From IMG/VR virus record IMGVR_UViG_3300022555_000046: a stretch of DNA of 64,000 nt, one strand, 5' to 3'. A model generated the notes under the pieces. It was not told the origin of the DNA and did not search any database. It worked only from the letters and a program-made list of their open reading frames with translations. Positions 8,735 to 59,527 of the stretch are shown here, in pieces (position 1 is the stretch's first letter; every line of letters starts with the position of its first letter). Position numbers and translations under genes: made by a program. This stretch comes from a virus.

Positions 8735-8747
8735 AAAAGGATAGACG

Positions 8748-24341: not shown

Positions 24342-26837
24342 ATGATTGTAAATATAGCGAATTTCAAGTCCTCTAATTTCCCCCGGCCATCAGACGAAGT
24401 GGACCCTCTATATAAAGAGACTCCTGAATATGGTTTTGATTGGAGTTCGTATATTTACGGTCAGTATATTGCGGGAAAGGCATTCGTCACGCCTGACGAG
24501 CAGGAGTCGATCCAGACAAACCGGGACTATGCCGCTGGAAGACAAGACACGGAAATATACCGTGACATGCTGGAACAGCGTCAGGATGGTCCCAGATTCA
24601 TTGGAGATAAGGAGTACGACTCCTTACTTAACCACAATGAAACAATGATGTCCGTTGATTTTTCCAGAATATTTTCCCCTATCCCTAAAATCCTCCTTAA
24701 TATTCAGGGGGTAATTGAAAAAACAGAACATGAGATCAAGGTTGCCGCAATTGACGAAAAGTCTACATCCCTGAAGTCGCAACTGAAATGGGAGTCTTAT
24801 GTTGAGGGGCAGAACAAGCCTATGTTTGACTGGGTCAGGTCCACGCTCGGTCTTCCCGGGCAGGACGATAAGTCTCTCCCGCAATCCGTTGAGGAAATGG
24901 AGTTAATGGAGAAGATCGGCTCTTTTAAATTAGCATACGAGATTGGTATTAAAGATGCCTTGACCGCCACTGCAAATATCTCCAAGAACAAGAAGGTAAA
25001 GCGAAGAGTTATCCGTGACTTATTTGAAAATGGGAAAGCCGCTACCTTCTGTTATGAAGACGTTGGCGGGGTAATAAAATACAAATATATTGACTTCAGT
25101 GAGTTGATTATGGAACCCGCTGATGACGAGGATTACTCTCTGTCTAACTGGGGTGGAATTGTTGAAAACTGGACCATCGCAGACCTAAGATGCAGACTTG
25201 ACGTCCCTGAGAAAAAACTTGCCGAACTTGCCCGTGCCCAGACGAAGAAAATGGCTGGAATAAACTGGAGTACAGAGCGGAAGGATGGAACTTACTATTA
25301 TGACGATGTTAAAATCCCGGTACTTGTATCTTACTGGAAGAGTGTTGATTCTGATTATGTAACCAATCACACTGACGGAAGGTCATATAATGAGCCTTGG
25401 AAATACTCCAAGTCGAAAGACGGTAAAACAGCCAAGATTTATCCTCCCAGAATGTATAACACGGAACATCGTGTAACCAGTGTTCATAAGAGAAGGGTTC
25501 TTTATAGCACAAAATGGATCATCGGTTCGGATATTGTTTTTGACAATGGAAAAGTAACTGATATTCCTTTTGACTTTCACGCCAAGGACGTCCGTCTTCC
25601 CTTCGTTATCTACCGCATCCCCGGCATCCCGCTGGTTGAACTGATGATTCCTATTGCCGACCAGATTCAATTAACATACCTTGAACTTCAGAACGCCCGG
25701 GCGAAGGCCGCTCCCAGTGGGCTAAAGATTGAACTGAGTTCTATTGAAAACCTGAAGGTCGGGAAAAAGACCCTGCATCCGCTGGATGTAATCAAGATAC
25801 GAACCCAGACAGGTCACATGCTTTATCGACTGGCTCCTCCACAGATGGGAAATCCGATTGGGATTCAAAATCCTATTGAGGAACTTCTTGGAGGTTATGA
25901 ACCAGCGATTATCAGTGCGGTCAAGGCTCTTGAAATGTTTTATCAGGAACTTGAGCGGGTTACCGGAATCGCAGACCTTTCCACCGGGAAAAGCCCTACT
26001 AACGATCAGGGACTTGGCGTTAGTCAGATTGCGCTCGAAACAACAAATAACACCTTGTCTCCGATATACACTGGATGGGTGACCATGAAGGAAAACATGG
26101 GAATGTATTGTGCTATAAAAATCCACTCAAAAATATCTGGTGCCACCGGGATAGACTCTCCTTATTTTGAGATGCTCGGACCAGCAAAATATAATGCCAT
26201 CAAGGGTGCCGGGAAATATCCTCCTGTTTATTGGGGGATTGATATTCAGGCCAAGATCGACACTCTTACAAAGCAAAAAGTTCTTGAGTCAGCACAGGCC
26301 GCTCTTTCTGTTGGGAAGGACGGGATTCCAATTCTTACCTACTCTGAATATCTGTTTATTGTTGATAAACTTCAGGAAGGCGCAAATGTTGCGGATATCA
26401 GGGCATTCATCGCCTACAAAGAACAGAAAGCAAACGAACTGGGGGCACAGAGGGCACAGGCGTCACAGGCTCAACTTCAACAGGGTCAGGCCGCAAATGA
26501 CAAGGCAAAAAGTGATGCCCAGATTCAGCTTGAAACAACTTTGTCTTCTTTAAGGATAAAAGAAAAAGAGGCAGAGGCTATTATTCAGGCCAAGTTGCTC
26601 GCCCTTGAATATGCACTTAAGGAGAGGTTGCAGACCAATCAAATCAGGACTCAGGCAGATGTAGACAACGGGCAACTTCCAAGTGGTCAGCCAAATACGA
26701 ATGGTCCGGTGAATACCGAAGGACAGCCTCCAGCAATGCCGGGAGGTATGCCCCCGGGGGCTAACGCTCCTGTATCTGGACCAATTGTACCGCCCTCACC
26801 ACAGGCGTCTCGACCGATGGCCCAACCAGTTCAATAA
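24342..26837 (+). CDS. portal protein (crAss-like)
   Basis: 831 aa between TerL and capsid genes; NRDYAAGRQD near N-terminus, coiled-coil and Pro/Gln tail. Confidence 0.85.
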   Translation: MIVNIANFKSSNFPRPSDEVDPLYKETPEYGFDWSSYIYGQYIAGKAFVTPDEQESIQTNRDYAAGRQDTEIYRDMLEQRQDGPRFIGDKEYDSLLNHNETMMSVDFSRIFSPIPKILLNIQGVIEKTEHEIKVAAIDEKSTSLKSQLKWESYVEGQNKPMFDWVRSTLGLPGQDDKSLPQSVEEMELMEKIGSFKLAYEIGIKDALTATANISKNKKVKRRVIRDLFENGKAATFCYEDVGGVIKYKYIDFSELIMEPADDEDYSLSNWGGIVENWTIADLRCRLDVPEKKLAELARAQTKKMAGINWSTERKDGTYYYDDVKIPVLVSYWKSVDSDYVTNHTDGRSYNEPWKYSKSKDGKTAKIYPPRMYNTEHRVTSVHKRRVLYSTKWIIGSDIVFDNGKVTDIPFDFHAKDVRLPFVIYRIPGIPLVELMIPIADQIQLTYLELQNARAKAAPSGLKIELSSIENLKVGKKTLHPLDVIKIRTQTGHMLYRLAPPQMGNPIGIQNPIEELLGGYEPAIISAVKALEMFYQELERVTGIADLSTGKSPTNDQGLGVSQIALETTNNTLSPIYTGWVTMKENMGMYCAIKIHSKISGATGIDSPYFEMLGPAKYNAIKGAGKYPPVYWGIDIQAKIDTLTKQKVLESAQAALSVGKDGIPILTYSEYLFIVDKLQEGANVADIRAFIAYKEQKANELGAQRAQASQAQLQQGQAANDKAKSDAQIQLETTLSSLRIKEKEAEAIIQAKLLALEYALKERLQTNQIRTQADVDNGQLPSGQPNTNGPVNTEGQPPAMPGGMPPGANAPVSGPIVPPSPQASRPMAQPVQ

Positions 26838-26931: not shown

Positions 26932-28029
26932 ATGGCAAACGAAGGAGCAACCGGACCTGATGGAAAGAAGAACGCTACCATAAGGTTTGAAACTCATTCT
27001 TCTCTGGAGAAGGATCAGTATTTCAAGGGGAAACACCCCTCTCAGCAAAAGACAGATGAACCTCCCGGGGGACCTGCGGGAGCAACGGCACCTGCCGACC
27101 AGAAAAAACCGGAACCTACCGGACCTGCCGGGGCAACCGGACCAAAGACACCTGAAGACCTTATGCTTGGAAAGGTCGGGGAACCGGACTGGAAAGCAAA
27201 GGCACTCTCTCTTGAAGAGCAGTTAAAAGCATTAAACGAAAAGGGTCCAGCAAACCCCCAGATCACCAATCCAAAGTTGTACAAGTTGCAGGTTATCGAA
27301 TCCCAGACTCCTGAAGAGGCACCGCTATTTCACAAAATTGCCTACGGTACGGCAACGTCCGAAGAGTTGTGGAAAGCAGGTTTTCTCCGTGATCATCCGC
27401 AGTATAAGGAAAAACCGGAGGACGTCCAGATGTATCTTGAGCGTAAACACCCACTGTTATTTGGGGATGACGTTGATACATCCACCAAGGAGTACCAGTT
27501 CGCAAAAATGGATTTCGACTTAGAGGCAGACAGAGTGAGGCAATCACTCCAGAATCGCTTTGACGAAATCAAGCTCCCCGAGGCAAGTTATGCCAAGGAG
27601 GATAGCGCACAGGAAACGAACGCACTTGCTACGGCATGGCAACCTGAGTTTGCTAAGATCAAGACTGGATTTGAAAAACTTTCAATCAGCGTACCTACCA
27701 CAGACAAGGAGGTTGAGTTGGTTGAGGTTGAGATTCCTGTTGAAGATCAGCAGAAGTATCTTCGTGCTGGCGCATTGATGGTTCTGAGTGAAAAATTACC
27801 TGCCGGGGCTGAAAGCCTTGAACGGGTACAGAAGTACATTCAGAAACAATACATTGCTGACCATCACATCGAACTCATGCAAAAGGCAATGAAACAGTCT
27901 GCTGCCAAAATGGAGAAGTTGATGTTGGACAAAACAACCAACCCGAATCGGATTAAAACCCCTGCTGGATCGAATGACGGGGACAGCAATCCGATGGAGG
28001 CATTTATTAAAAAAGTTACTAAATCTTAA
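26932..28029 (+). CDS. putative scaffolding protein
   Basis: Acidic and helical, directly upstream of the MCP; Pro/Gly-rich N-terminus. Confidence 0.7.
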   Translation: MANEGATGPDGKKNATIRFETHSSLEKDQYFKGKHPSQQKTDEPPGGPAGATAPADQKKPEPTGPAGATGPKTPEDLMLGKVGEPDWKAKALSLEEQLKALNEKGPANPQITNPKLYKLQVIESQTPEEAPLFHKIAYGTATSEELWKAGFLRDHPQYKEKPEDVQMYLERKHPLLFGDDVDTSTKEYQFAKMDFDLEADRVRQSLQNRFDEIKLPEASYAKEDSAQETNALATAWQPEFAKIKTGFEKLSISVPTTDKEVELVEVEIPVEDQQKYLRAGALMVLSEKLPAGAESLERVQKYIQKQYIADHHIELMQKAMKQSAAKMEKLMLDKTTNPNRIKTPAGSNDGDSNPMEAFIKKVTKS

Positions 28030-33622: not shown

Positions 33623-34333
33623 ATGAACCTTAAGGACGTAAATTCTGTTGTTTCGTTTTGGCTCGGAAAGAAAAAGCCGGGATTCACGCTTACCAAGCCT
33701 GAGTTCGAGCGTCTTCTGCATCTTTCCCAGTTGAAACATTTGAAAAGGAAGATAGGACTCCCTGAAGAATATCAGCCCGGGGCACCCTTGCCGAAACAGG
33801 TTTACGAGATATCAAACGTCATTATGGACGATCTGTCTCCGTTTAAGAGAGTTATGGGGGGAGATGAGATGGCTCTTGCTATTGACATGGCTGGATACAC
33901 CAATGTCCCCAAAGATTTTTATTACCCTTCCACCCTCCAGCTTAAGTTGATTAACTCGAAAACAGGAAAGTTAAGGTATCGCAAGATCAGTATTGTAACT
34001 GACAAAGAATGGGCTGACCGTCTCGGTTCTTTTAGCGCAGAACCAAATCGGTATTTCCCGGTTGCGAACTTTCAGAATAAATTTATTCGTTTTTACCCAA
34101 AGGACTTAAGGTCGGCAGACTTTGTTTATATATCAACTCCGGTAAAGCCAGTGTACGGAGTCACCTATGGGAGAGGGTTTGCTGAATACGTCCCATCAAC
34201 ATCCACTGAACTGGCGTGGAACGATACAAATATAATTGATATTATGGGGATTCTTCTTGGAGAGATTGGGGTAAATATCCCGAACTCGGACCTGATAAAT
34301 ATCTCCGATAAGGCAGAAGTAACAGGAACGTAA
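33623..34333 (+). CDS. head-tail ring/adaptor protein (crAss-like), paralog 1
   Basis: Similar ends to 36561-37361 (N-terminal FxxxxF, YISTPVKP...ELAW..IGVNI). Confidence 0.65.
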   Translation: MNLKDVNSVVSFWLGKKKPGFTLTKPEFERLLHLSQLKHLKRKIGLPEEYQPGAPLPKQVYEISNVIMDDLSPFKRVMGGDEMALAIDMAGYTNVPKDFYYPSTLQLKLINSKTGKLRYRKISIVTDKEWADRLGSFSAEPNRYFPVANFQNKFIRFYPKDLRSADFVYISTPVKPVYGVTYGRGFAEYVPSTSTELAWNDTNIIDIMGILLGEIGVNIPNSDLINISDKAEVTGT

Positions 34334-44628: not shown

Positions 44629-45585
44629 ATGATAGGACTATTAGCATCATTAATCCCTATGGCGATCAACTTGGCGAGCGGAGTTTTCAGCAAGGTTGCG
44701 TCTGATAAAACAGCCAGTAAGATCGGAGACCTAAATACTACGATGCCTGAACAGGCCATAGAAGCGGAGGGGATGGCAAGAGAAATGTCTTATATGGGGA
44801 TGCCGGGATATGAGAGATATAAGGACAATGTCGATCAGATGATGTCACAAACAATATCTCAGATGAAGGATGTTCTCCAGAGTCCGTCATCAATGATAGA
44901 CATGGCGTCAAGGGCGATGTCGGCAACGGACGAGGCGTACAATCAATTGGCCATAGAAGACACCAAGGCAAGACTGGGAAATATAAATAACTACGAGAAT
45001 GTACTCACACATAACGCTGGCCTTGACGTGTCTATTCAGGGTCAAAACAACCAAATTAAATTAGCATCTATCGAGCAAAGCGCACAGGGGACCAAGGACT
45101 TACTCCAAAGCATAAACACCGGAATAGGGGCTGGAATAAGCACCTACGGAATGATTAGCAGCCTGAATTCCCAAGAAGACTTTTTGAAGAAACAAGCCAC
45201 GTTCTTTCAGCAGGGGGGAAGTGTTGACTCGTTAACCCCGAGCAAACCAGCAGTGCCCACATTTGAAGATTCCCCATCCTCATCCCCGGGATACGAGAAG
45301 ATTCCCCAGATGTTTTCAAGCCCCGGGGAAAAGTCCTATGGCCTTGATGGGGTTATAAACGGGATCATCCCTCCGGTAAAAGCCGGGACACCGTATTCGA
45401 CACCTCCATTTACAGAAGAACCAGCTTTTAAAGAAGGACTTACCACTCCTTGGGGTTCGGTCTTAAATCCAAATACTCCTGTCGATAAGAGTGTTAACCC
45501 AAATGGGGACTGGTTCGATTACATGAAGTCTAATCCTGCTGACCCCATAAATATCATGTTCAAGAAACTTGGATTCAGCTATTAA
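44629..45585 (+). CDS. internal virion/ejection protein 1
   Basis: Amphipathic Gly/Ala N-terminus, helical Gln-rich body, position after the nozzle gene. Confidence 0.65.
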   Translation: MIGLLASLIPMAINLASGVFSKVASDKTASKIGDLNTTMPEQAIEAEGMAREMSYMGMPGYERYKDNVDQMMSQTISQMKDVLQSPSSMIDMASRAMSATDEAYNQLAIEDTKARLGNINNYENVLTHNAGLDVSIQGQNNQIKLASIEQSAQGTKDLLQSINTGIGAGISTYGMISSLNSQEDFLKKQATFFQQGGSVDSLTPSKPAVPTFEDSPSSSPGYEKIPQMFSSPGEKSYGLDGVINGIIPPVKAGTPYSTPPFTEEPAFKEGLTTPWGSVLNPNTPVDKSVNPNGDWFDYMKSNPADPINIMFKKLGFSY

Positions 45586-45596: not shown

Positions 45597-46853
45597 ATGC
45601 CTCCTATCTCGTTTTTACCTCAAGACACAATAACTCCCGCCATTCAGAATCTCGGGCAGTCTCTTTCTGCTATAAGTCAAAGAAAGATGGCTCAACAGCA
45701 GGGGATTATTGACCAGTACATGAAACTTGTGGACGTTTCTCTGGAAGGTACTCAGGCCAATCACCGGGACGAGATACTTGGAGACCTCGATACTTTCAAG
45801 CAGAAGGCGGCAGACGTTTTTGTGAAGGCCGAGCAAAATAATGCAGTCCCAAACTACAAAGACCTTACGGCTATTGAGCAGGATAAGAAATCCATTCTCA
45901 CCAAGGTTACCGATAGTCAGTTGCTGGTAAACAGGTATAAACAAGCCATGTTGTATGCTGCTGAATTGAAGAAAAAAGGGGAGTTAGCACCTTCCTCGGA
46001 GGCAGCATTGAATGACTGGGTTACGACTAAGACACCTATTGCAAAGGCCGCTGACCCAATGACCCTTATTGACACCCAGTACACACCTGAAAAGGCGATG
46101 AAAATTGAGAAGGAGTGGTTCCGTGACAATCAATATGCCGCTCAGAAGACCGGGAAAATGACTCCACGTCCTGACGGAAGTGGATACGATTACACTTACG
46201 GTGTTTATGACGAAGGGGACGTTCAGAGGGATGCAGGTAATTTATGGGACAGTGACAAGGACCTTCAGAATTACTGGAAGGAAAGGGGAGTTGACAGATC
46301 GACATATATAACCAGAAAACAGCAGACCGAGACAATGGGGATGCAGTTGATCAAGCAGAAGGCTGGATTTGGGAAAGTTCAACCATCCACCGGATGGACT
46401 CAGTTTGATAACAGTGATGGTACGACTACCTACACCCCGCAGGTTCTTATAAAAAGGCCATTAACCTATGCTGATGGTACAATATCTGACACACAATTGC
46501 TTAAATTTGTCGAGGATAAATCAACTGGTAAACGCATATGGTATGGAACAAGGATGGTCAAGGTCCCTAAAGACGCAACTCAACAGTATATTGCGGATAA
46601 CCCCAAAAAATACCCGGGCATAAAAGTTGAGACAAAAGAGGAGGAACAGCCTGTTAAGATTGACGAAACAACCCTGTCGACCGATGACTATAATTCTCTC
46701 CAAGCGTATTACCCGAAGGACCCGGGAAAGGCAAAGAAGGTTTCTGAACCAACCGTTGGGTCATTAAAGGCCGCAAGAACGCAGAACCCGGGAGTTTCTG
46801 ACGCTGACTTGATTAAACTGTACAAGGATCAACACAATATAGACCTGAAGTAA
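45597..46853 (+). CDS. internal virion/ejection protein 2
   Basis: 418 aa helical; synteny. Confidence 0.65.
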   Translation: MPPISFLPQDTITPAIQNLGQSLSAISQRKMAQQQGIIDQYMKLVDVSLEGTQANHRDEILGDLDTFKQKAADVFVKAEQNNAVPNYKDLTAIEQDKKSILTKVTDSQLLVNRYKQAMLYAAELKKKGELAPSSEAALNDWVTTKTPIAKAADPMTLIDTQYTPEKAMKIEKEWFRDNQYAAQKTGKMTPRPDGSGYDYTYGVYDEGDVQRDAGNLWDSDKDLQNYWKERGVDRSTYITRKQQTETMGMQLIKQKAGFGKVQPSTGWTQFDNSDGTTTYTPQVLIKRPLTYADGTISDTQLLKFVEDKSTGKRIWYGTRMVKVPKDATQQYIADNPKKYPGIKVETKEEEQPVKIDETTLSTDDYNSLQAYYPKDPGKAKKVSEPTVGSLKAARTQNPGVSDADLIKLYKDQHNIDLK

Positions 46854-49800
46854 TGGACGAAAACACAAAATTACCGCCAATTGATCTTTCTGGACTTACT
46901 GGTGCAAACAAGGGAGCCTCTTTACCTCCCATCGACCTTTCTGGGTTAAAAAAAAAAGAGGAGCCTGTAAATCCGTCCGATGCTTTTTCGATGGATGCCG
47001 GGAAAAACTTAGGAGGCGGGTCGCCTATATCCCCTATCCAGCCATCGTCATCCGAAGATGGTACATCTAAGGCGGCACCGGGACCAGTTGTGCCCAAGGA
47101 GGTAAAACCAGTACCTCAACCGACACCGGGATTCAATACCACAAAATTATCCCCCAAAGACGAGGAGGGTTTCCAGAAGTTCTGGAATGAGAACCCTCGT
47201 GTACAGGCGTGGAAACAGGACCAGAGATTGACCAAGGGAGGAGAAGATTCTCCTGACAATCCAGATTACGACTATCGTGGTGCGTGGAAATCAGGTATAA
47301 CTCCAGTTGCAACTAAAAACCCAAGTACAAAAAAATGGGAACTCAACTGGGGAAACTTTGGTTCAGATGGTCAAGACCTGAAATCTCCGAATAATCCTAC
47401 AAAATGGAAATCCGATTATCAGCAAGCGGTCGGGGTAGACCCTGATAAAATCGGGATCACCGAGGCAAGAGCCAAGGCAGAAATTGCTCCAATAACCTCA
47501 GAACAAGAATACCAAGACGGTTTGGATAAGCCAAAAGACCCCGTTCAGATAGAACGGGAAAACATGTGGCTCAATCAGTCTTATCTTATGCCAAGAATTG
47601 CAATGAAAGATGCCGCTGACAAGGGTGATCTTACCACGGTGGTACAAATGCTCTCTAACTTGGAGAAAACCCGTCCTGCCGATCCCTACGCCAATCAGTT
47701 GCCATACTGGGCGGCAAAGAAAGCCGCAGAAAACGATGCAAGGAATGTAATTGTTCAGTCTGGTATCGTTGATGGCTCTCCGACACCCGATGATGTAAAG
47801 GGAATACTGGCGAGAGACCCGTCAATTTACGATAAATATGGAGTTTCTGGGTTTCTTGATAAGGCACTTGCACTAAATCCCGATGATCCTACTCTTAACG
47901 GGCAGAAGGTTGTGATGGCGGCAAATTCAGGAAACTGGAAGGACGCCCTTTTGTATGCCGACAAACTGATGAGCCTTCCTCCTGATCCGAATAAGCTGGC
48001 TCAGATGGAGCGTGAACATATGGCTTTGGGGGCAAAGACAAAGGCCATGCAGAACCTTTCCCGGGAAGAGCAGGGGTCAAATACCCCAGAGCATACAAAG
48101 ATTATGAATGATGAGGTAGACAAACTTACGGACCAGAGAACGGTTCTTGGTGACGCCATAAAAGAAGAGCAAAATCAGTGGTACAATAGGAGGTCCTCAA
48201 TGGACTATATTGTGGCACAGGGAGTTGGAAATTCATTGATCGGCAAGGGAGTTCAGGCTTTCCTTCCACCGGGATCGACCGATCCAGCATTTGATCCTTG
48301 GGCGGGATACACGCCTTCCACGACTGAAAGTGTTGCGGCAGGATTTGTGAGCCTGTTGATTGACTCCGGTCCGATGTTGCCAGTAGCTGGATGGGGAACC
48401 GTTGGGAAGGGTGCTGCTGAGTTCGGTATGGAAGGACTTGGGGCGTTTTCAGTAGGGGCAAAACCTGCGGAAATGGCTGTTGACTGGGCGATCAAGAAGA
48501 ATGCTTTAAAGGCGGCAGAAAAGACTATTGCTCAGTTTGTTGCTAATGGGATGAGGGAGTCGACCGCCAGAAAAGCGGTTGCGTATCTTTCTGATGAGAT
48601 GATAAACGGAGCCACCGCCAGCGTGATTAAAAACGCTGCCGTTTCCGCTGGTTCTCTTAGTGCCTATGGGATGATGAGCGAAACAGCTACCCAGTTAGCT
48701 GATCCCAAAAACACACTTAAGAGCATTAATTGGAGTCAGGTGCTGAAAAGAGGAGGAGAGGACTTTCTTCTTGGAGGTGCGGTCGGTGCTATTGGTGCCG
48801 GGACTGAAATCGGGAAAGGGTCAGTCGGTGAATGGGGGGCTGATACCGGACTTTCAAAACAATCCATATCCACTCTTAAGGCCAATGTAAGTGCCGCTGG
48901 ATTTGCCACTGAAGTCGGGGTGTTTACGGTTGGTGGAACAATGTTCGACCCAAAGAAACAGTTAAGCGACTTAACATTCAAGGACTTTGTGTTAAGTGCC
49001 ATCCCTCTTGTAGGGCTTAAAATACCTCACATACTGATATCTGGAACGGAATGGGTCAAGGCTCAGAACTTTGATAAGGGGAAGGTGAATGAGGGCGTAT
49101 TCAGGGTAGAACTTACTCCTGACGAAATCAGTCTGATGTACGACTACAAAGGGAGACCGAAGGGTAGGACTGATAAAAACGGAAATTATAAGCTGAATGC
49201 ATTCCCCTCCTCTGACGAGGTCATAAACAGCCTGAATAACGATCCAAATCAGTTACAGTGGTTCTTAAGGTCGGGAAGTATCCCTATTGAGACCAAGGCA
49301 AAGTTGATGTATGCTATTGAGGGTCTTATGCCAGATACCGGAACTCCAGTAGTGTCAAGGATTGATACTAAAAGCGATGGAGGAAAGTCGGTTTTAATCG
49401 CCTATAATGCCGCTGACGAGCCTGTGTTCGCCCGTAAATACGGAGATGCTGACGCTGCCGAGAAGGACGCCATGAGATTCACTACCCTCATCATGGAACG
49501 TCAGAAAAGGACGGACGCAAACAGTATGACGGTCCAGCAGAAGGTGAATATCTCCCAGAGGCTTAAGGCTGGAGAGGCCGATGTTGCTACCTTAAAGATG
49601 GGGCTTGATAAATATGAAACTCCGTGGGACCGCACTCCACTGGAGCAAAAGGAGGTTGACCGATTTGATGCAGAGGTTGCCAAGGAGAAGGAAATTGAGG
49701 CTAAAAGACAAGACGCACTTTACAAGTCTGCTAAGAAGAAAATGGAGGATGGAGAGGCTTTAAGCCGGGAGGAAAGTAATATTGTAAAATTAAGAGACGA

Positions 49801-52800
49801 GAATCCATTGTCTCTCGATGATGCTGTTCAGAGGGTTAGAAACCTTGTCGAGCCTCCTCCAATCGAGACAGGGTTACTTCCCAAGAAAGGCGAGTCAGAG
49901 CCTGTTATAAAACCAGAAATTCCTATCATCCCTGCTACCGGAAGTAGGATTGAATGGGATAAACCGGATGATGGATCGGACCCAATCCTTGGTTCATATA
50001 AACTTGATGACGATAATCATGTTCAGATAGAGCAGGTTACAACACAATATCAAAAACCGTCAAGGATCGGGAGGCTGCTCGGGAAAGACGGTCAGTTTGT
50101 CCCGGTAAGTCCATATTGGGAGGTTAATGTTACGGGCGATAAATTCGGAGAGTCCACTGGGATACACCGTGCGGAAACCCGTGTAGGTGCAGAGAAAATT
50201 GCAAACGAAATTATTAATAAAAACACAGATGAAAACGTCAATAGTGAAAACGCCATCAGGGTACTTAGTCCAGACGGACGAAGGCAAACCGTTAACCCCG
50301 GCACTATCCTTGGAGGAGGCGAAACAACGCAAGAAGGCAATCGACTCGTATCAGGGGAGACTGGCGAAGTTAAACCAAGCTCCGTTGTCTTCCTCGATGG
50401 AAAAGCCTTTGTTGTAAAAGGGATATCGGGAGATAAATTTGATCTTGGGGACGGGAATATTGTTGATAAATCCAAGGTGCTTGTGGTTGGAGATGAAGGT
50501 TCTGGAAAGCCCGTAAAATCACTTCTTGACAGGCCAGTTTCAGAAGTTAATCCGGTCGACATAAACGATAAAAGCCTGAATGACGAGGTTAAGTACAGGA
50601 CAAACAGGCTGAATGTCGAGGTTTTGGATCACGAGACAGCCGCTGTTTCAGCGCAGGTTCTTAATATGATGTCCGATCCTGCTAATGCCGGGAAATCCCT
50701 TAATGAAGTCATTGATCAGGCGGTCGGAGAGTACGAGGCGTTCCGCAAGGTTGATAAGGAGCCTATTAATGGAGCCGATCCCGTAATTTCCAAGGACGCA
50801 AAGGGAAGCGAGACAACCACGCCAAGTTTCAGTCTAAATGACGCTGTTCGCAACAGTCCAAAAAACAAAGGGAACAACCTGTGGGTAAGGATGGACCCGG
50901 GAAAAGATAATTCAGACAGAGTGTTGCTTGTTCAATTTTCAAACTCGGACCTCCTGAACAGAGGAAGATTGACCGGGGACCCGACAGAGTTGTATTATGA
51001 CAAACTATACCGTACCAGACCCGGGTTCGACAGGACGTTCGACTTCTGGGAAATTCCACTATGGATGTCCCGGCTCTCTCATATTGTTGACAAGTCGGAT
51101 GTTTATGTTGTCAGGGATATGGATGAGGCTATTAAGTTTATTAAAGAGGCTGGATACGACAGGGTTGCATTCAGTACTCTTATGATAAATGAGCCACATA
51201 TTTCGAGGATAGCAGAGGAGATTCCCGGGCAGAAAATATCCGTAGGGGGATACACCGAATTCAAATCCTTGAGTGAAAAACCAAACGTTACCGTGTATAA
51301 GACGGTCAGTGAGTTTGCTGTTCAAAATGGATACCCAGATGTTCATGGGTATTCCTATCGTCATTTCAGGGGCACGAGAGTCATCCCCAGACTCAGTATG
51401 TCCGAAGGGTGCCTGTTTCACTGCGCCTTTTGCTCGGAAATTCCCCGGGTTATAACGGAAACGCCCAAAGATATCATTGACTCTCAGGTTGAAAGCATCA
51501 AGGACTTGGATGCAAGGCTGATATATTTGGATGACAAAACTTTCGGTCAGTCCAAGAACCACACTTATCTCACTGAGATTTACAAGAGGATAAAGGAGGT
51601 AAATCCTGATTTTGAAGGCTTTATAATCCAGACAACCGCTGGCCAGATGCTCAAGTTTGACAATCAGTTTCTGGAGGACGCCCACATTAAGTACGTTGAA
51701 CTTGGAATTGAGTCGTTTAACGATCCTATTTTAAGGAGATTACACAAGCCAGCCCTTGAAAAACAGATGGAGTTGGCGGCAGAAAAACTCAGGGAGAACA
51801 AAATAAACTTCATTCCTAATCTCGTTGTTGGTTTCGAGGGGAAAGACAAGGTCGGAGACACTGAAACGGACTGGTCGGAAACGCCCGAGTCTTACGCCAG
51901 AACAGCCGATTATCTTAATAAGAATCTGGATATCATTTCACATATCAATGTGAACTCCCTCGCCCTTTATGACGGGACAGAGTTAAGTGATAATATCGGA
52001 GCAAATATCGAAGGCAATAACAACCAAAATGTCGTTGAAAAGCCGTACCAGAAGAATCCTTCCGTACACAGACAGGCAATACTTGACTTTACAAAAATAG
52101 CATCAAAAGCCCTTGATCGTGTTCCTTACGGACCGGAGCCTCTGGCAAAGCCAGATATGATCAATAGTCTCAATCCTGATGGCACAATTTCAGCCATATT
52201 TGTAGCACCTTACAGGGACCTGAAGATAACCAGCGTAGAGGATGCCACATCCGTCAGGGAAAGACCAGAGTATAAGGCGTACATCAAGGGGATGCATGAA
52301 CTTGGCCGAATTATGAAGGTTGAGATAAAGAACATCGACCACACTATTGGAATTTTTGAAGGCATCCCAGAGGTGTCAAACAGGGTGGAAGTGAATGCGA
52401 AAACCCTTGATGAGGCCGAACAATTTGCCGCACTCCTTGGCGTGATGTCTCACGAAACCCAGAAAGCAACAATTGCCTCCAGATACGTTGAGCCTGACGC
52501 CCCTTCGGACGGGGTTTCCGACAGGATTATCGAACTGGAATTCAAGGTAGACAATGTTGAAGGGGTGCTTAAGGCACTCAAAGACGCTGGACTTGACGCC
52601 ACACTTCTTGACGAGAAGGGAAGAGTTCAAATACTTGATTTCTACGATAATAAGAATGAGGAATTTAATTCACAGGTAGATAAATTTGCAACTAATTTAA
52701 AAGAAAATGGAATCACCATCGAAGATCAAACAGCCAGACCAGTCGACTCCAGATACGTCACCGAAGACAGACGGTCCCAGTTACTCAAAGAATTTGGCGT

Positions 52801-55800
52801 TCAAGTGGAAGACGGACAGGGTGGGGAAGATCAACGTGCGCTTTGGCAACGAGCCACCGAAAGGGATGCGGAATACCGGAGTGTGAATGGCTTAACCCCG
52901 GTTAATTACAAGGACGTACCTATTGAGGAAAAGGTCATCCCGGCAGAAGTTCCTTTAATGAAGGAAATTCAAGCCCTTCAGGAGGCCACCAAGAAAAATC
53001 CCGCCCCAGAGTCTCAGAAGAATGTACAGTCTATTATTAACGGGCTGGCAAAGAAGGCTGTTAATGGACTTGATGCGGTTGTGGTACAGTCTCAGGAAGA
53101 CCTTCCTGCCGACATAAGGGCTGGAATTGAAGGGAATGCATCTCCCGGGGCAAAGGTAAATATCAGGGGTGTTTATGACCCTTGGAACGGGAAGATTTAC
53201 TTCATTGCCGACAATCTTAAGAATGAGAATGATGCCGTGGCCACATGGGTTCACGAGCAGGGGATTCACCGTGGCCTCAGATCGCTGATTGAAAAGCCAG
53301 AGGAATTAGATAAACTGCTTGGGAAAATATATGACTCCGTGGGAATGGATAAGATATCCCAAACCATCGACAGGTCGTATATTAATTCGTTTAACAGCGG
53401 TAAGATCGGGAAAGAAGGTTTGGCCGAGGAGTATCTTGCCAAGATTGCCGAGAAGATCATTACCAAAGAGGACCTCAATAAAATGGAGAAGGGAATATGG
53501 CAGCAGGTTGTCGATTTTGTTCGCAATGCCATAAAATCCTTTATCGGGAAAGACGTGGCTCTTACAGATAACGAAATTGCCGATATCATCAAGGCCAGTA
53601 CCGCCTCTGTATATGAAAGAGAGTCTCCGTTCTTCCCAAGTCAAGGAGGTAATGTCATGCCTCACATGGATGAGTTTATGACCGGGGAAGAGTCTTTCAG
53701 AAGTATAGGAATAAACCCAAATAAGACAAATAACCTCAGAAAAATATATGAGAAAATAAATGAGTATTACGAGCGTAAAAAATGGAGGGTAACCGACAGG
53801 CTTAAGTCGGAAAAGGATAAAAAAGGAGACGAATTAGCCCGTATAATTGCTCACAACAAGAGTGTTAGGCACCAGATCATCCCCAGACTATCTAAGTTTA
53901 TCGCCTTAGAGGTTGAACACATGATAGACACATACGGAATGTCAGACCGTAGCGGAGTTGGCTGGTATACAAAGCAGTACGAAAAGGCTATCGACACACT
54001 CAGTACTGTGTATCCAGAGTTAAAAACAAACGAACATGGGGAGCGTGACCTATTCACAATGCTCACGGCCATTACCAGCGATCAAACCGAGGTTAATGAC
54101 AATCTTCAGGCTGCTGTTGAAATATATGAGGCTTACAAAAACAATGGCTCTAAAAAAATACCTTATGCTACCGGAGGTGGGACAAAAACAGAATCTTACG
54201 ACCTTAATATAGATAGGATAAACGAACTACTTGAGAGTCCTGAATTTGATGGAGACATCAAAAAATTAAGCAAGTGGTTGATGGAAAAAAAGACCGGAAC
54301 TAAGTTTCGTAAAGAGGCAAAAGAACTTGGAATTAAATACAATAGCGGGTGGGAAGATAAGATGAAACTCCCACGGGCTGTTACCGTGTTTGGACCTAAG
54401 TTAGGAGTGTACTTCTCTAATCTTATGGGAGACGAAGGGTATCCGACAATGGACCGTTGGGAGTCCAGATCATTCAATAGATACAGGTCATCAGTCATCC
54501 CTACTTTAAAAGGAAGGGAAGGCTCTCCTGAGTCGGAAGATGTCGGTGTTAGGGCGTATAAAACGCTGATTGGCAAGCCAGACATATCTGATGACGATGC
54601 AATTGCTGACGCAACAAAAAGGACGAGGGCTTACATAAAAAGAAAAGGACCAGACACCGTTGTGACCAAAGACGGCATAACGAAGGTTAAAAAAGGAGGT
54701 GGATACTGGACCGATATCGAGATATTGGTTGGTCAAAAAAAGGGGACAAAGAAAGAGCAGGAGATTGAGTACGAGAAGATTTTGGCAAATCTTGACGTGG
54801 AAAAGGCTCAACGTGACAAGGGCGTGGTCCCGAATATGATAAAGTCAAAAGAGCAATTAATACAAGAGGGGAACGCTGATACTAAGGCAAATGGGATATT
54901 CCAGAAAATGAATGGAACAGTAGATTCCCCAGATAATGCCCCAGATCGAACATTGCAATACGAAACTTTTAAAGAGGCACAACGTAAGTTGGCTGAGAAA
55001 GGGTATAATCTTTCTGTGGCAGATGTTCAGGCTGCATTGTGGTATTTTGAGAAAGACCTGTATATCAAAGCGGGAGGAAGGGAAAATGCTGCCGGGGTTT
55101 CTTATGGAGACGTTGCGGGTCCACTCGTCAAAGGCAAACTCAATACAGGAGTATGGAAAAGTGAGATGACAACCAAGCAGTTAAAAACAAGAGATCAGGC
55201 CGAGAAAGATACGAGTTCTGGGCAGGGAAGGTTGTTTTCAGCAGAGTCAGAACCGATGTCTTCCGAGGATCGCAAGAAATTGATCAACGGTATTACTAAT
55301 GTGTTTGGGAAGTTCAGGGACATTCATCCCGAATTAAAGGGCACTGCGCTGGTTAATGCGTTTAAGGAAAGTGTTGCTAAAACCAACGAGTCGATCCCTA
55401 ATGACGTGATAAACGAGGCTATTTTCGGTAAAAAAGCAAGGATGAAAAAGCCAGCGGATGAAACTACGGCCATAAATAATGCCACAATAGAAAGTGAACT
55501 GGAGGGCAGGGAAGGCTTACAGGCTCTGGACGCTCTCAGGAGACACATAGGAGCCGTACACAGCACGAACGTCTTCGAGGCATATGACATTGCCAAAGCC
55601 GGGGTAAACGCAAACCCAGAGATTCTGTACGGGGTAACAAACAGGGTTCTGAGAGATCATACCGGAAATCTGGTTGACGAGGCAGTTCTTTTGATCCACA
55701 GAGCCATCCTTCGTAATGACGAGATTGAGTATCTGAATAAATTAAAGGCCGAGAAAAGTCCAGAGCAAAGAAGGAAACTTCAGAATGATCTGTCTGAGGT

Positions 55801-58800
55801 TTATCGTAAAATGTCAGATAATGACATGGCAAGCTGGATGATCGGGCGTGAGGCCAGCAACATCTTCCGTCTTCGTCAGACATACGTAAACACGGAGTTG
55901 AATATCGGCCAGATGGAGCGTGAATACATGGCCACCAAGAGTCTTGAGGAATTGACCCCAGAGGCAAAGGCTTATGTTGCTCAAAAATTTCAGGACCTGC
56001 GGGATGCCAAAATAAGGATCGAAGAACTGGAAAAGGCGCATGAGGCAGATAAGGAGAAGATAAGGATCATGGAAGTTCTGGGGACCGGGGGCAGGAGTAA
56101 AAATATGCCAAAGGAACCAGAAAACAGGATCAAAGTGAATGTGGAGAAACTGCGCCAGATCATGTTGGCCGGAATGAAACCATCATCCTCAGAAGAAGGT
56201 CCTGTCAAAAACATCGTCCCGAAAGAGTATTCTAAAAATATGGTTGACGATGGGAATGGGAATTATATATTCTTCAGGTACGGTCATGGTTGGGAGAAGT
56301 ACAAGAACGGGATGGTTGATCCATCACACTGGGGGGAGAATAGCATAACCTCAGATAAGCGTTCCGAAAAGGTTAGTTATTATTACACTCAGCCGGGAGA
56401 TCGTGAACACAACGTTACCGGAGGATTACACGCTGTAAGGATTCCGAAAGACAAGGTTTATCCGTTTAACGATGATCCATTAAATTTCTATGATCAAGCC
56501 CTTGCCTTATTTAGGAAGGATTATGGTCCAGACGTGTCGTTCTCGCCAGACAAGCAGATCGACTACATGAATCCCCTCATTGCAGAGGCTGGATACGACA
56601 TGGTTGTAGCTAAATGGAACGGAAAACTAAGAGCGGAAAGCACGAAAAGCCATCCGATTGACATGGATGCCACAAGAAACGCCAGAGGGGGAGGTGCAGC
56701 AGCAGAAAAAGATGACCTTGGCTCAAAGATAAAAAACAGGATAGAAAAAGAGGTAAATACAGCGTCAGGGTTTGAGAAATACGGATCGCTTTATTATGCC
56801 AAGGGAGGGTCGAAGGCTGATGTGGCAGAATTATTATCAAACAAGGATATAGCAAAACTTATAGGAAAAAAAGATGTCGACAAATACAGGGAACTGGAAG
56901 GCATGTATCCTACGGACAAGGAGGCTAAACCCTCCTCGGAGTCCAGTGCTGATATATCAAGGATCATCAAGGATATCGCTAAGGATCATCATGTTATGGG
57001 CGCAAAGTCGCTGGATGAGATTGTAGAAAAAACCCTGAGTGACGTGCAGCAGGTATTCCCCGAGTTTACCGCCAGAGACATCATGGATCATCTTTCTGGA
57101 TATTCAAAGGAGAATGCTCCAAAGACAAGGAGTGAACTTGCCACGGATATGGCGAACTATAAGCGTGAGGCCGAACTCCGTCTTAAACTTGAAGACACAC
57201 AAAATGGTATCGACACCGGGAAGGTGAAACCTAAACCCCCTGCCGATCCTCCCGAGATAAAGGAGTTGAAGGATCAAATTAAGGACCTGAAAAATGCAGA
57301 CAAGCCAACTCCCGCACAATCTGCCGAACTTCGCAAGAAAGACAGGTTGATGCAGCAGTATGAGGACCTTAAAAACGGAATAACCAGACCAAAGACCCCG
57401 GCACAGCAAAAGCAGGAGAGTCAGGACATTATTGATCTTCGTGATGACATAAAGAGACTTCAGGACAAAAATAAACCCACGCCCGAAGAAAAGAAGGAGT
57501 TGCAGATAAAGAAAAGGCTTTTCGAGAACTTCAGGGACATGGTTGAAAATGGAGGTGGGAAGTCCGGTATTTTTGTCGTAAGAGAAGGTGACTCTGAGGA
57601 TGTTATAAGAATGAAAGAACAGGGAATGGCAGAGGCTGAACGCCTTGGTCTTCCTGCCCGGGAATACAACGAAAGACGTATTAAGTATCTTAACAATCGA
57701 AAGAACTGGGTACAGGAGCAGATCGACAACGAGCAGTTTACCACCCTAAAGAAAGCGGCTAAAACATACGAGAAAACAGATGCCCTTCTGGAGGCAGAAG
57801 ACGATTATGCAAACAAGGTAAACGAATGGAAGACCGAACGTCAGGCAGACCTGAACCGGAACAAGCCTCCGATCCAAAGGTGGACCGAAAACATTCTGAA
57901 ATGGCAGCGTTTCGCTATCCTTGGATTTGCCGGGACACTTGCAAAACTGGCGGCTGTTGTTGGTTATGGCACCATCCTTAAGCCGTTTATGGTTGCTTGG
58001 CAGCAGGTTATCGCTCAAATAACACCCAAGTCAGCCAAGGATCAAATGGATATCTGGGGAGAGGCTCACTGGTCAGCCGTGTCTAAGTATTACGCTCAGT
58101 TCATAAGGAACTTCCCGATAACCAGAAAAGGAAGGCAAAATTGGGCGAACATGTTTGGCGGTCAGGACCCGCATGAAACCCAGTTTGGCAAACCTAATAT
58201 CTTCGAGGAGTGGAATATCGGACAGGGGATTATGGAATTCCCGGGTAGGGCGCACGGATACATCAAGTCGTTTATAAAGAACCCTGAGTTCGTTTACGCT
58301 ACCGAGCAGATTTCACTTAATTACTTTAAGAAGATCAGGGACATCGAACAGAAACTTCGAGACCCAAACCTGTCTTCGGAGGAAAGAAAGTCACTGGAGG
58401 ATCAACATAAGCTGTATGATCCATCGAGGAAGGACGTCCAGTTTAAGATTGGGACCATGTCTTTGAACCATGCGAAATGGTCGATCCTTATGAATGAGAA
58501 TGATTTTATTCAGGGTTTACAGGGATTGTTTGCCAAGGGATTGCCGGGAGCGTTTTTAAAGACTGAACTTCCGATCTTGAGGGTCCCCCTGAATTACATT
58601 GACAGGGCGTTAACATTCAAGTATGGGCTATTCATTGCTCTTGCCGGGAAGAGAAGGTTGGCGAAGGAAGGAATGCCTATGGAGGCACCGGGACTGGCTC
58701 ATCTGATGGTCAGCGGAACCAAGATACTTAAACCCGGGGAGGCTGATATTCTCCAGAGAAGTATTGTAATGGGGTCAATGGGGGCTGGACTTTTTGTACT

Positions 58801-59527
58801 GGGGGCTTTGATGAGAAACTACCTGACTCACAATGACGATGGCTCTGTACTTATAAACGCAGGAGGGAAGAAGACCACCATCTCAAAGAAAATAACCCAC
58901 TATCCGATGCTGGAAAGTGTTCTGGCCGGGGCGTCTGCTGCTCACGAGATCGACAAACAGGCGGCAAAAGGGAATAGCACCGGACTACTTCAGTGGTTAG
59001 AGGAATACGTTGCCTCTGATGCAGCTACGGTCAAGAATGCACCGTTTATTAACATGCTGGAATACGGCCTTATGGGAACCGTCATCAATGCCACCCCGTA
59101 CTTTAAAGACAGGTCAGACTCTGTTAAAATAGACAAGGGGATGACTCAGGTAGAAACCGCTCTGGTGAACAAATTTGCCAGAATGGGAGTCCCCGGGCTG
59201 GTTCAGGAGGTTGCAAAATGGCAATCGGACTTCGGGATGCAGGTAACCCCAGAAGGAGATACGATCCCGGCAGAAAAGCGATTTGCCAAGACCCCGGGGG
59301 AGGCATTCTTCCAGATGTTCCCGGTACTTCGTGAGAAATACGTTCCTACCAATACTGAGCGGGAGGCAATGAAAAGAGAGGACAAGATTAAGAACGTCCC
59401 GACTTCTGCGGAAATGGATGCTAAAATTGAAAAGGGAATTAAGCAGATGGATGAGAAACAATTGAAGGAAGTTCGGATGATCCTCGAACTAAAAAGAAGA
59501 GGGAAAACACTTCCTCCTCCTTCTTAA
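46853..59527 (+). CDS. giant polyvalent ejection protein (4224 aa): TPR-like, radical SAM, zincin metallopeptidase, HhH-glycosylase-like and ART-like domains
   Basis: CLFHCAFC at aa 1520-1527 with YLDDKTF, VELGIES, NLVVGF; WVHEQGIH..LAEEYLA at aa ~2134; GWY..AITS..FSNLMG..TMDRW..VQAALW; FLDKALALNPDD. Confidence 0.85.
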   Translation: MDENTKLPPIDLSGLTGANKGASLPPIDLSGLKKKEEPVNPSDAFSMDAGKNLGGGSPISPIQPSSSEDGTSKAAPGPVVPKEVKPVPQPTPGFNTTKLSPKDEEGFQKFWNENPRVQAWKQDQRLTKGGEDSPDNPDYDYRGAWKSGITPVATKNPSTKKWELNWGNFGSDGQDLKSPNNPTKWKSDYQQAVGVDPDKIGITEARAKAEIAPITSEQEYQDGLDKPKDPVQIERENMWLNQSYLMPRIAMKDAADKGDLTTVVQMLSNLEKTRPADPYANQLPYWAAKKAAENDARNVIVQSGIVDGSPTPDDVKGILARDPSIYDKYGVSGFLDKALALNPDDPTLNGQKVVMAANSGNWKDALLYADKLMSLPPDPNKLAQMEREHMALGAKTKAMQNLSREEQGSNTPEHTKIMNDEVDKLTDQRTVLGDAIKEEQNQWYNRRSSMDYIVAQGVGNSLIGKGVQAFLPPGSTDPAFDPWAGYTPSTTESVAAGFVSLLIDSGPMLPVAGWGTVGKGAAEFGMEGLGAFSVGAKPAEMAVDWAIKKNALKAAEKTIAQFVANGMRESTARKAVAYLSDEMINGATASVIKNAAVSAGSLSAYGMMSETATQLADPKNTLKSINWSQVLKRGGEDFLLGGAVGAIGAGTEIGKGSVGEWGADTGLSKQSISTLKANVSAAGFATEVGVFTVGGTMFDPKKQLSDLTFKDFVLSAIPLVGLKIPHILISGTEWVKAQNFDKGKVNEGVFRVELTPDEISLMYDYKGRPKGRTDKNGNYKLNAFPSSDEVINSLNNDPNQLQWFLRSGSIPIETKAKLMYAIEGLMPDTGTPVVSRIDTKSDGGKSVLIAYNAADEPVFARKYGDADAAEKDAMRFTTLIMERQKRTDANSMTVQQKVNISQRLKAGEADVATLKMGLDKYETPWDRTPLEQKEVDRFDAEVAKEKEIEAKRQDALYKSAKKKMEDGEALSREESNIVKLRDENPLSLDDAVQRVRNLVEPPPIETGLLPKKGESEPVIKPEIPIIPATGSRIEWDKPDDGSDPILGSYKLDDDNHVQIEQVTTQYQKPSRIGRLLGKDGQFVPVSPYWEVNVTGDKFGESTGIHRAETRVGAEKIANEIINKNTDENVNSENAIRVLSPDGRRQTVNPGTILGGGETTQEGNRLVSGETGEVKPSSVVFLDGKAFVVKGISGDKFDLGDGNIVDKSKVLVVGDEGSGKPVKSLLDRPVSEVNPVDINDKSLNDEVKYRTNRLNVEVLDHETAAVSAQVLNMMSDPANAGKSLNEVIDQAVGEYEAFRKVDKEPINGADPVISKDAKGSETTTPSFSLNDAVRNSPKNKGNNLWVRMDPGKDNSDRVLLVQFSNSDLLNRGRLTGDPTELYYDKLYRTRPGFDRTFDFWEIPLWMSRLSHIVDKSDVYVVRDMDEAIKFIKEAGYDRVAFSTLMINEPHISRIAEEIPGQKISVGGYTEFKSLSEKPNVTVYKTVSEFAVQNGYPDVHGYSYRHFRGTRVIPRLSMSEGCLFHCAFCSEIPRVITETPKDIIDSQVESIKDLDARLIYLDDKTFGQSKNHTYLTEIYKRIKEVNPDFEGFIIQTTAGQMLKFDNQFLEDAHIKYVELGIESFNDPILRRLHKPALEKQMELAAEKLRENKINFIPNLVVGFEGKDKVGDTETDWSETPESYARTADYLNKNLDIISHINVNSLALYDGTELSDNIGANIEGNNNQNVVEKPYQKNPSVHRQAILDFTKIASKALDRVPYGPEPLAKPDMINSLNPDGTISAIFVAPYRDLKITSVEDATSVRERPEYKAYIKGMHELGRIMKVEIKNIDHTIGIFEGIPEVSNRVEVNAKTLDEAEQFAALLGVMSHETQKATIASRYVEPDAPSDGVSDRIIELEFKVDNVEGVLKALKDAGLDATLLDEKGRVQILDFYDNKNEEFNSQVDKFATNLKENGITIEDQTARPVDSRYVTEDRRSQLLKEFGVQVEDGQGGEDQRALWQRATERDAEYRSVNGLTPVNYKDVPIEEKVIPAEVPLMKEIQALQEATKKNPAPESQKNVQSIINGLAKKAVNGLDAVVVQSQEDLPADIRAGIEGNASPGAKVNIRGVYDPWNGKIYFIADNLKNENDAVATWVHEQGIHRGLRSLIEKPEELDKLLGKIYDSVGMDKISQTIDRSYINSFNSGKIGKEGLAEEYLAKIAEKIITKEDLNKMEKGIWQQVVDFVRNAIKSFIGKDVALTDNEIADIIKASTASVYERESPFFPSQGGNVMPHMDEFMTGEESFRSIGINPNKTNNLRKIYEKINEYYERKKWRVTDRLKSEKDKKGDELARIIAHNKSVRHQIIPRLSKFIALEVEHMIDTYGMSDRSGVGWYTKQYEKAIDTLSTVYPELKTNEHGERDLFTMLTAITSDQTEVNDNLQAAVEIYEAYKNNGSKKIPYATGGGTKTESYDLNIDRINELLESPEFDGDIKKLSKWLMEKKTGTKFRKEAKELGIKYNSGWEDKMKLPRAVTVFGPKLGVYFSNLMGDEGYPTMDRWESRSFNRYRSSVIPTLKGREGSPESEDVGVRAYKTLIGKPDISDDDAIADATKRTRAYIKRKGPDTVVTKDGITKVKKGGGYWTDIEILVGQKKGTKKEQEIEYEKILANLDVEKAQRDKGVVPNMIKSKEQLIQEGNADTKANGIFQKMNGTVDSPDNAPDRTLQYETFKEAQRKLAEKGYNLSVADVQAALWYFEKDLYIKAGGRENAAGVSYGDVAGPLVKGKLNTGVWKSEMTTKQLKTRDQAEKDTSSGQGRLFSAESEPMSSEDRKKLINGITNVFGKFRDIHPELKGTALVNAFKESVAKTNESIPNDVINEAIFGKKARMKKPADETTAINNATIESELEGREGLQALDALRRHIGAVHSTNVFEAYDIAKAGVNANPEILYGVTNRVLRDHTGNLVDEAVLLIHRAILRNDEIEYLNKLKAEKSPEQRRKLQNDLSEVYRKMSDNDMASWMIGREASNIFRLRQTYVNTELNIGQMEREYMATKSLEELTPEAKAYVAQKFQDLRDAKIRIEELEKAHEADKEKIRIMEVLGTGGRSKNMPKEPENRIKVNVEKLRQIMLAGMKPSSSEEGPVKNIVPKEYSKNMVDDGNGNYIFFRYGHGWEKYKNGMVDPSHWGENSITSDKRSEKVSYYYTQPGDREHNVTGGLHAVRIPKDKVYPFNDDPLNFYDQALALFRKDYGPDVSFSPDKQIDYMNPLIAEAGYDMVVAKWNGKLRAESTKSHPIDMDATRNARGGGAAAEKDDLGSKIKNRIEKEVNTASGFEKYGSLYYAKGGSKADVAELLSNKDIAKLIGKKDVDKYRELEGMYPTDKEAKPSSESSADISRIIKDIAKDHHVMGAKSLDEIVEKTLSDVQQVFPEFTARDIMDHLSGYSKENAPKTRSELATDMANYKREAELRLKLEDTQNGIDTGKVKPKPPADPPEIKELKDQIKDLKNADKPTPAQSAELRKKDRLMQQYEDLKNGITRPKTPAQQKQESQDIIDLRDDIKRLQDKNKPTPEEKKELQIKKRLFENFRDMVENGGGKSGIFVVREGDSEDVIRMKEQGMAEAERLGLPAREYNERRIKYLNNRKNWVQEQIDNEQFTTLKKAAKTYEKTDALLEAEDDYANKVNEWKTERQADLNRNKPPIQRWTENILKWQRFAILGFAGTLAKLAAVVGYGTILKPFMVAWQQVIAQITPKSAKDQMDIWGEAHWSAVSKYYAQFIRNFPITRKGRQNWANMFGGQDPHETQFGKPNIFEEWNIGQGIMEFPGRAHGYIKSFIKNPEFVYATEQISLNYFKKIRDIEQKLRDPNLSSEERKSLEDQHKLYDPSRKDVQFKIGTMSLNHAKWSILMNENDFIQGLQGLFAKGLPGAFLKTELPILRVPLNYIDRALTFKYGLFIALAGKRRLAKEGMPMEAPGLAHLMVSGTKILKPGEADILQRSIVMGSMGAGLFVLGALMRNYLTHNDDGSVLINAGGKKTTISKKITHYPMLESVLAGASAAHEIDKQAAKGNSTGLLQWLEEYVASDAATVKNAPFINMLEYGLMGTVINATPYFKDRSDSVKIDKGMTQVETALVNKFARMGVPGLVQEVAKWQSDFGMQVTPEGDTIPAEKRFAKTPGEAFFQMFPVLREKYVPTNTEREAMKREDKIKNVPTSAEMDAKIEKGIKQMDEKQLKEVRMILELKRRGKTLPPPS

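Follow-up and report, generated by a model that had tools for sequence, protein, structure and literature searches.

The 64,000-nucleotide (nt) stretch of DNA from IMG/VR virus record IMGVR_UViG_3300022555_000046, analysed at its full length and called the window here, carries a giant open reading frame (ORF) for a protein of 4224 amino acids (aa). Inside this ORF, nt 50870-52147 are a complete radical S-adenosylmethionine (SAM) module of class-B-like architecture. We think it somewhat probable that this module is one enzymatic bead of a packaged and ejected polyvalent protein, and that it acts on a target early in infection. The giant ORF and its relevant parts are as follows.

46853-59527, + strand: giant ORF, 4224 aa, an uninterrupted frame of 12.7 kb and the final gene of the + strand structural module
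50870-52147, + strand: radical SAM module, aa 1340-1765, delimited by homologue coverage, alignment and AlphaFold2 model
50870-51364, + strand: N-terminal Rossmann-like (B12-binding-like) domain, aa 1340-1504, five beta-alpha units in the model
51365-51979, + strand: radical SAM core (partial TIM barrel), aa 1505-1709, from Pfam, alignment and model
51410-51433, + strand: CxxxCxxC motif, C1520/C1524/C1527, the predicted ligands of a [4Fe-4S] cluster, from the ORF translation and homologue conservation
51980-52147, + strand: C-terminal helical cap, aa 1710-1765, from the model
53912-55114, + strand: divergent DUF7178-like domain, aa 2354-2754, from a hidden Markov model (HMM) match, enlarged by insertions

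The Pfam family PF04055 (Radical_SAM) matches aa 1515-1661 with 32.3 bits in the whole protein and 39 bits in the domain slice; its gathering cutoff is 29.5 bits. An earlier note on this DNA had recognized a radical SAM enzyme from a series of motifs, and every motif that it quoted was found in the frame of the giant ORF at the place it gave. These are YDRVAFST (aa 1435-1442), KISVGG (aa 1461-1466), IYLDDKTF (aa 1557-1564), VELGIESFND (from aa 1615) and NLVVGF (aa 1656-1661), and its CxxxCxxC motif is C1520/C1524/C1527. The domain had been placed at aa ~1345-1760, and homologue coverage puts the conserved module at aa ~1300/1340-1760. The same note had held that its reading would fall if the cysteine triad were not conserved in homologues. 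In a clean alignment of 62 viral module sequences (30-60% identity), the triad is invariant down to 30% identity. Further invariant positions lie in YLDDKTFGQ, FxGFIIQTT, ELGIES..N....L.K and NLVVG, and the giant homologues keep the three cluster cysteines in 66/66, 66/66 and 65/66 cases. The N-terminal domain has conserved features of its own (NLWVR, LLVQFS, YYDKLY, DFWEIPxW and KISVGGY), with no conserved cysteine in its alignment. Because the triad is conserved in homologues and supplies the only cysteines of the protein, the radical SAM match is not due to chance. We predict that the module is almost certainly catalytically competent.

New here is that the cluster ligands are the sole cysteines of the giant protein (three in 4224 aa) and of many giant homologues. 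Other structural ORFs of the same phage contain 0.80% cysteine, and at this rate the chance of finding no further cysteine in the giant protein is ~2e-15. Exactly three cysteines were found in 61/123 of the homologues of at least 2000 aa, and six or fewer in 113/123. Within the module itself, embedded forms have 3-4 cysteines (n=41), compared with 4-11 (median 8, n=18) in standalone viral forms (Mann-Whitney p 2.6e-10), a contrast that is confounded by phylogeny because the standalone forms make up a separate, more divergent clade. Cellular relatives of the module have 11-13. Seven of the eight multidomain proteins that carry DUF7178 without a radical SAM module have no cysteine at all. We take this loss to mean that selection disfavours cysteine in proteins that exit the cytoplasm and that only the cluster ligands are spared from it. 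Thus, the purge, with its ligands spared, argues for export and for a functional cluster.

Some other ORFs of the structural operon are free of cysteine as well. Two of them, 44629-45585 (319 codon positions including the stop) and 45597-46853 (419), lie just upstream of the giant gene and may encode co-ejected proteins. The others are 26932-28029 (366) and 33623-34333 (237), counted in the same way.

An AlphaFold2 model built on the 62-sequence viral alignment (pLDDT 90.4, pTM 0.88) consists of a five-stranded Rossmann-like domain (slice residues 1-165), a radical SAM barrel and a C-terminal helix; beyond aa ~1765 the chain is modelled as a disordered linker. Thus, the barrel expected by the earlier note within aa 1340-1770 is present in the model, and the Rossmann-like segment that it saw ahead of the core is supported by the fold and by weak matches to PF02310 (B12-binding). 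The best single structural match is AprD4 (match figure 20.9, 357 residues aligned), followed by MgmA (20.6), MiaB (20.2), RimO and CysS (18.8 each), OxsB (17.9), TsrM (17.0) and core-only enzymes (~15). The structural alignments of the module to MgmA, TsrM, OxsB and CysS are full-length. A sequence profile of the module finds RimO at E ~1e-9, then MgmA, AprD4, Elp3, OxsB and CysS. The NCBIfam matches, which include PhpK, BchE, MiaB/RimO and B12 radical SAM families, are all far under their cutoffs.

When the N-terminal domain was searched alone, PF02310 matched 10/62 members (best E 8e-4), but it did not match the giant protein's own N-terminal domain. No sequence relative of the isolated domain was found in the PDB. 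In the ESM Atlas, the nearest cluster is an all-viral Radical_SAM cluster (380 aa, TM 0.77/0.90), and the second-nearest is a viral cluster with B12-binding and Radical_SAM domains, in which 96% of members carry PF02310. These results support a class-B-like architecture for the module. The class B reading of the earlier note therefore stands in its Rossmann plus radical SAM architecture and fails in curated class B family membership (PhpK, 35 bits against a cutoff of 600; BchE, 28 against 481). The best structural match, AprD4, is a dehydratase whose B12-like domain is not known to bind cobalamin, so ‘class B methylase’ is one option among several. We leave the chemistry open among methylation, dehydration and rearrangement.

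The module is shared far beyond the window. In a word-indexed search, aa 1340-1790 were matched at 36-60% identity by 66 giant proteins of 2326-5605 aa. When 1.84 billion representatives were searched exhaustively without a profile, 529 relatives passed E<=1e-3 and 282 passed E<=1e-30, counted as 50%-identity clusters. Nearly all of them lie within proteins of 1000-5600 aa; standalone genes, whose phage form is 375-560 aa long, make up a minority. A single-sequence scan of viral contigs gave no match, whereas 76 viral loci emerged when IMG/VR was scanned with an alignment as the seed. BLAST coverage of the giant protein is sharply bounded: aa ~1300-1760 are common to 181/181 homologues, but the flanks are covered by <30 upstream and ~43 directly downstream. 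This block shows the module to be a shuffled cassette; it is a mobile one, carried by hundreds of giant phage proteins. On plasmids, tblastn with the module found only distant cellular radical SAM genes. An in-frame stop at one locus (L057) was considered as a case of recoding and rejected; it is merely the stop ahead of the standalone gene's start.

The commonest neighbour of the standalone module is a DUF7178 (PF23802) protein of 170-267 aa, which was found at 9/20 loci within 3 kb and on the same strand. At one locus (L066), the radical SAM gene and the DUF7178 gene (4173-4778) overlap by 4 nt. At E<=1e-5, an HMM built from these standalone-locus neighbours matches 52/123 giant homologues, and the matched segment nearly always lies downstream of the module. 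In our giant protein it matches aa 2366-2734 (E 7.5e-7) as collinear pieces split by large insertions. The motifs recovered are GVGWY (2368), TSDQTEVNDNL (2408), GPKLG with K2516, TMDRW with D2534, and QAALWY (2726). With E values of 4e-5 to 8e-3, the DUF7178 profile also matches archaeal and bacterial Ogg2 8-oxoguanine glycosylase/lyases. The Lys and Asp that are invariant in DUF7178 align, with identical 18-residue spacing, with chain residues 129 and 147 of Methanocaldococcus jannaschii (M. jannaschii) Ogg, which we take to be the catalytic Lys and Asp; K2516/D2534 are the equivalent pair in the giant protein. DUF7178 also carries an invariant Ser. We therefore assign DUF7178 an Ogg2-like HhH-GPD DNA glycosylase/lyase fold with candidate catalytic residues. 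The family occurs both standalone and in many polyvalent proteins.

Two side observations concern the standalone loci and their relatives. A 178-kb phage-like contig (L090) carries two radical SAM paralogues, at 2518-3774 and 8001-9410 (418 and 469 aa), together with an RtcB ligase gene and a 596-aa DUF7178 protein, all within 10 kb. Additionally, a conserved family of 83-100 aa with the motifs YTE, GxWxGxxE and NxQ lies beside the radical SAM and DUF7178 pair at five standalone loci. Its members are given below.

L003, 4766-5041: member of the 83-100-aa family
L056, 4669-4950: member of the same family
L066, 5759-6061: member of the same family
L067, 5614-5865: member of the same family
L073, 4483-4761: member of the same family

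The giant ORF closes a co-directional structural operon that includes TerL (17723-19966), the portal gene (24342-26837) and genes for fibre/spike-like and other virion proteins; NinG/NinB-like genes follow on the opposite strand. TerL is 26-30% identical to that of podoviruses of Flavobacteriia (Elemovirus, Cellulophaga phi46:3, phi18:3 and phi38:1, and Maribacter Panino), and the portal is 23% identical to that of Cellulophaga phi38:1-type phages. All but one of the 87 TerL matches are to phages of Flavobacterium, Cellulophaga, Tenacibaculum or Maribacter, and no Crassvirales record was among the TerL or portal matches. The crAss-like frame of the earlier note thus lacks support. These matches make the phage an uncultured podovirus with distant relatives among the phages of Flavobacteriia. 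Among the cultured phages of this group, Flavobacterium phage vB_FspP_elemoE_10-3D (L001 3-11006) encodes a 3668-aa ‘structural protein’ (DUF3293) that lacks the module; this Elemovirus protein shares ~145 aa with aa ~3122-3265 of the giant protein. Elsewhere in the window, 15516-16706 (- strand) encodes a 396-aa protein in which a GroES/Cpn10 domain occupies only aa 290-364, behind an N-terminal extension of ~290 aa that has no family match.

Proteins that share the module carry ART-PolyVal, InPase, LPD14/23/38, HD, GNAT, histidine phosphatase and SNF2 domains. Because ART-PolyVal, InPase and LPD14/23/38 are found in its homologues, we group the giant protein with the phage polyvalent proteins, as the earlier note had done. 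Several unrelated enzyme domains in one protein are a mark of this group, and here a radical SAM domain and an Ogg2-like HhH domain lie within 4224 aa encoded in a phage structural operon. The remainder of the giant protein gave no PDB sequence match and no PHROG, and no polymerase domain was found in it. Our literature searches turned up no polyvalent, ejection or internal virion protein described as carrying a radical SAM domain, in keeping with the earlier note, to which this cargo was not known among described polyvalent proteins. The word ‘radical’ does not occur in the main text of Iyer et al. 2017 (PMC5512222).

Cellular standalone relatives of the module, 31-32% identical, were found in Aliirhizobium smilacinae (neighbourhood at L085 7404-14869) and Halovulum marinum (neighbourhood at L083 3730-6663). 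Both adjoin a class II aldolase gene and a PNP/AMP-nucleosidase-type gene, and the Aliirhizobium operon also contains genes for an aldehyde dehydrogenase, a cobalamin adenosyltransferase and an amino-acid ABC transporter. This neighbourhood suggests chemistry on nucleosides or sugars and an involvement of cobalamin, and we treat it as a lead only. The same is true of a possible ‘5'-deoxyadenosine salvage operon’; the PNP-family neighbour resembles AMP nucleosidase or DeoD, not MtnN.

Based on these findings, we propose a model for how the module could be used. The giant protein would be incorporated into virions and would pass with the DNA into the next host, in the way proposed for polyvalent proteins. 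The module probably travels cluster-free, and cluster-free travel would avoid the oxygen problem. In the cytoplasm, the host Fe-S machinery would load the cluster, and a host flavodoxin or ferredoxin would reduce it. SAM cleavage would then give the module a 5'-deoxyadenosyl radical, with which it could modify its target early in infection. The most likely class of substrate seems to be DNA or a nucleotide, because the module is recurrently fused to or adjoins DUF7178, which the giant protein carries too, and its cellular relatives lie beside a nucleoside phosphorylase-type gene. In its fullest form, the model describes an injected enzyme that is cluster-free, purged of cysteine and rearmed by the host, and that, together with the Ogg2-like domain, attacks DNA or nucleotides by radical chemistry within minutes of the start of infection. 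We put this version forward tentatively, as possible but doubtful.

Several observations weigh against the reading of the module as part of an ejected, early-acting protein, among them the phylogenetic confounding of the cysteine contrast. We infer packaging and ejection of the giant protein from indirect signs, namely the position of its gene, its transmembrane-like segments (aa 494-512, 711-731, 3686-3706 and 3969-3988) and its cysteine purge. The giant protein itself gave no Pfam match to the hallmark polyvalent domains (MPTase, ArdC-N, ART-PolyVal and LPDs). A cluster cannot survive unfolding through the tail channel, so that activity after entry needs a putative re-loading step. The closest homologue, P0003 (3713 aa), reads CKFKCAFY at residues 1403-1411, with Tyr in place of the third Cys; the copy may be inactive, the Tyr may come from a sequencing error, or the cluster may be ligated in an unusual way. 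Tblastn with the module found no match in 50,697 deposited phage genomes, and there is no cultured carrier. The module is acidic (isoelectric point 5.3; family median 5.9), unlike an obvious DNA binder. As to the companion domain, DUF7178 is present in 8/8 mid-size multidomain proteins that lack the radical SAM module, and the distance between module and DUF7178 varies from 37 to 1465 aa. Because DUF7178 occurs without the module and the spacing is variable, a functional link is suggestive, not proven. The association may reflect shared architecture rather than shared chemistry.

Other explanations bear on what the module does and on where it does it. It could be a true class B cobalamin-dependent methylase that acts on an unactivated C or P atom of a host or phage macromolecule. 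This identity is in keeping with a two-domain fold that matches MgmA, TsrM, CysS, TokK and OxsB, with PhpK, BchE and B12 radical SAM families as the best weak NCBIfam matches, with PF02310 in some of the N-terminal domains, and with the Aliirhizobium relative, which scores 24 bits to PF02310 and shares an operon with a cobalamin adenosyltransferase. However, we regard it as rather unlikely, given family scores so far under their cutoffs, the lack of a PF02310 match in the giant protein's own N-terminal domain, a dehydratase as the top structural match, and MiaB/RimO matches that are equally good. We also considered, and rejected as extremely improbable, a MiaB/RimO/MtaB-type methylthiotransferase with host tRNA or a ribosomal protein as its target. 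With no conserved cysteine in the N-terminal domain, and none anywhere in the protein apart from the radical SAM triad, an auxiliary cluster is impossible. Additionally, TRAM gave no Pfam match, the modelled chain closes with a single helix and is disordered beyond it, and the scores are far under the family cutoffs.

Phages are known to attack SAM, as with the SAM lyase of T3, and the earlier note had offered SAM consumption as a role; the module would then blunt SAM-dependent host defences. Slow turnover and dependence on a reductant make radical SAM enzymes poorly suited to depleting the SAM pool. Alternatively, as its place within a structural-type protein would allow, the module could be a non-catalytic structural relic, but this sits badly with cluster ligands and SAM-motif residues that are invariant across 30-60% identity and with the total loss of cysteine elsewhere. 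We judge either of these outcomes very unlikely. The main rival is action in the producer cell. The holo-enzyme would modify replicated phage DNA, perhaps together with the HhH-type domain, or a virion component late in infection, and would afterwards be a mere passenger. The gene lies in a late structural operon, and survival of an Fe-S cluster through unfolding and ejection is unlikely; both points favour this account. It also has a precedent in DNA hypermodification, since M6 gp53, a radical SAM isomerase, and the HhH-fold enzyme aGPT-Pplase cooperate in the post-replicative hypermodification of phage thymidine (PMC8989533). Even so, we consider it unlikely and prefer the reading in which the module is ejected with the giant protein and acts early in the new host.

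Polyvalent proteins are thought to be the first weapons that a phage brings into the cell, and the cargo known from them catalyses hydrolytic or transferase reactions. A radical enzyme that is oxygen-labile and has heavy cofactor demands is unexpected in this company. The module is widespread yet absent from all deposited phage genomes, and has thus escaped study. The cysteine purge may offer a simple sequence signature of proteins selected for export, one that would mark the three remaining cysteines as indispensable. DUF7178, a family of unknown function, is given both a fold and residues that are candidates for catalysis. The only radical SAM enzymes described as acting on DNA are spore photoproduct lyase and M6 gp53 (PMC8989533), and if the link to the Ogg2-like domain is functional, the module would join this very short list. 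If the injected enzyme is indeed rearmed by the host and acts on DNA or nucleotides with the Ogg2-like domain, it would represent a new mechanism of counter-defence or genome conditioning and a new class of DNA-directed radical SAM enzymes.

Among known systems, the module resembles in architecture the B12-domain radical SAM enzymes and AprD4 (PDB 6fd2 for AprD4; 9ccb, MgmA; 6wte, TsrM; 5ul4, OxsB; 9n1d, CysS), with which it shares 11-17% identity. It differs from them in that it sits inside a 4224-aa virion-type protein and is stripped of non-ligand cysteines; its binding of cobalamin is putative. In contrast to the methylthiotransferases MiaB, RimO and MtaB (PDB 7mjx, 4jc0 and 9a6d), it has neither auxiliary-cluster cysteines nor a TRAM domain. 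The hypermodification kits of M6 and ViI (PMC8989533), which act on DNA, likewise tie a phage radical SAM enzyme to a protein of DNA-glycosylase fold. In those kits, however, gp53 is SPL-like and not B12-like, and the enzymes are free in the cytoplasm, not beads of a virion protein; DUF7178, for its part, is Ogg2-like and retains the Lys/Asp pair. Genes of a 5-hmdU pathway were not identified here, although no search was aimed at them. The polyvalent proteins described by Iyer, Burroughs, Anand, de Souza and Aravind (2017; PMC5512222) are likewise giant, combine unrelated enzymatic domains and are encoded with virion genes. Last, the giant ejected virion RNA polymerases of N4 and crAss-like phages (PMC13434306) are similar in that they are multi-thousand-residue, enzyme-bearing proteins whose genes accompany structural genes and whose entry along with the DNA is presumed. 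In the giant protein studied here, the predicted cargo is instead a redox metalloenzyme, and TerL and the portal are of neither the N4-like nor the crAss-like kind.

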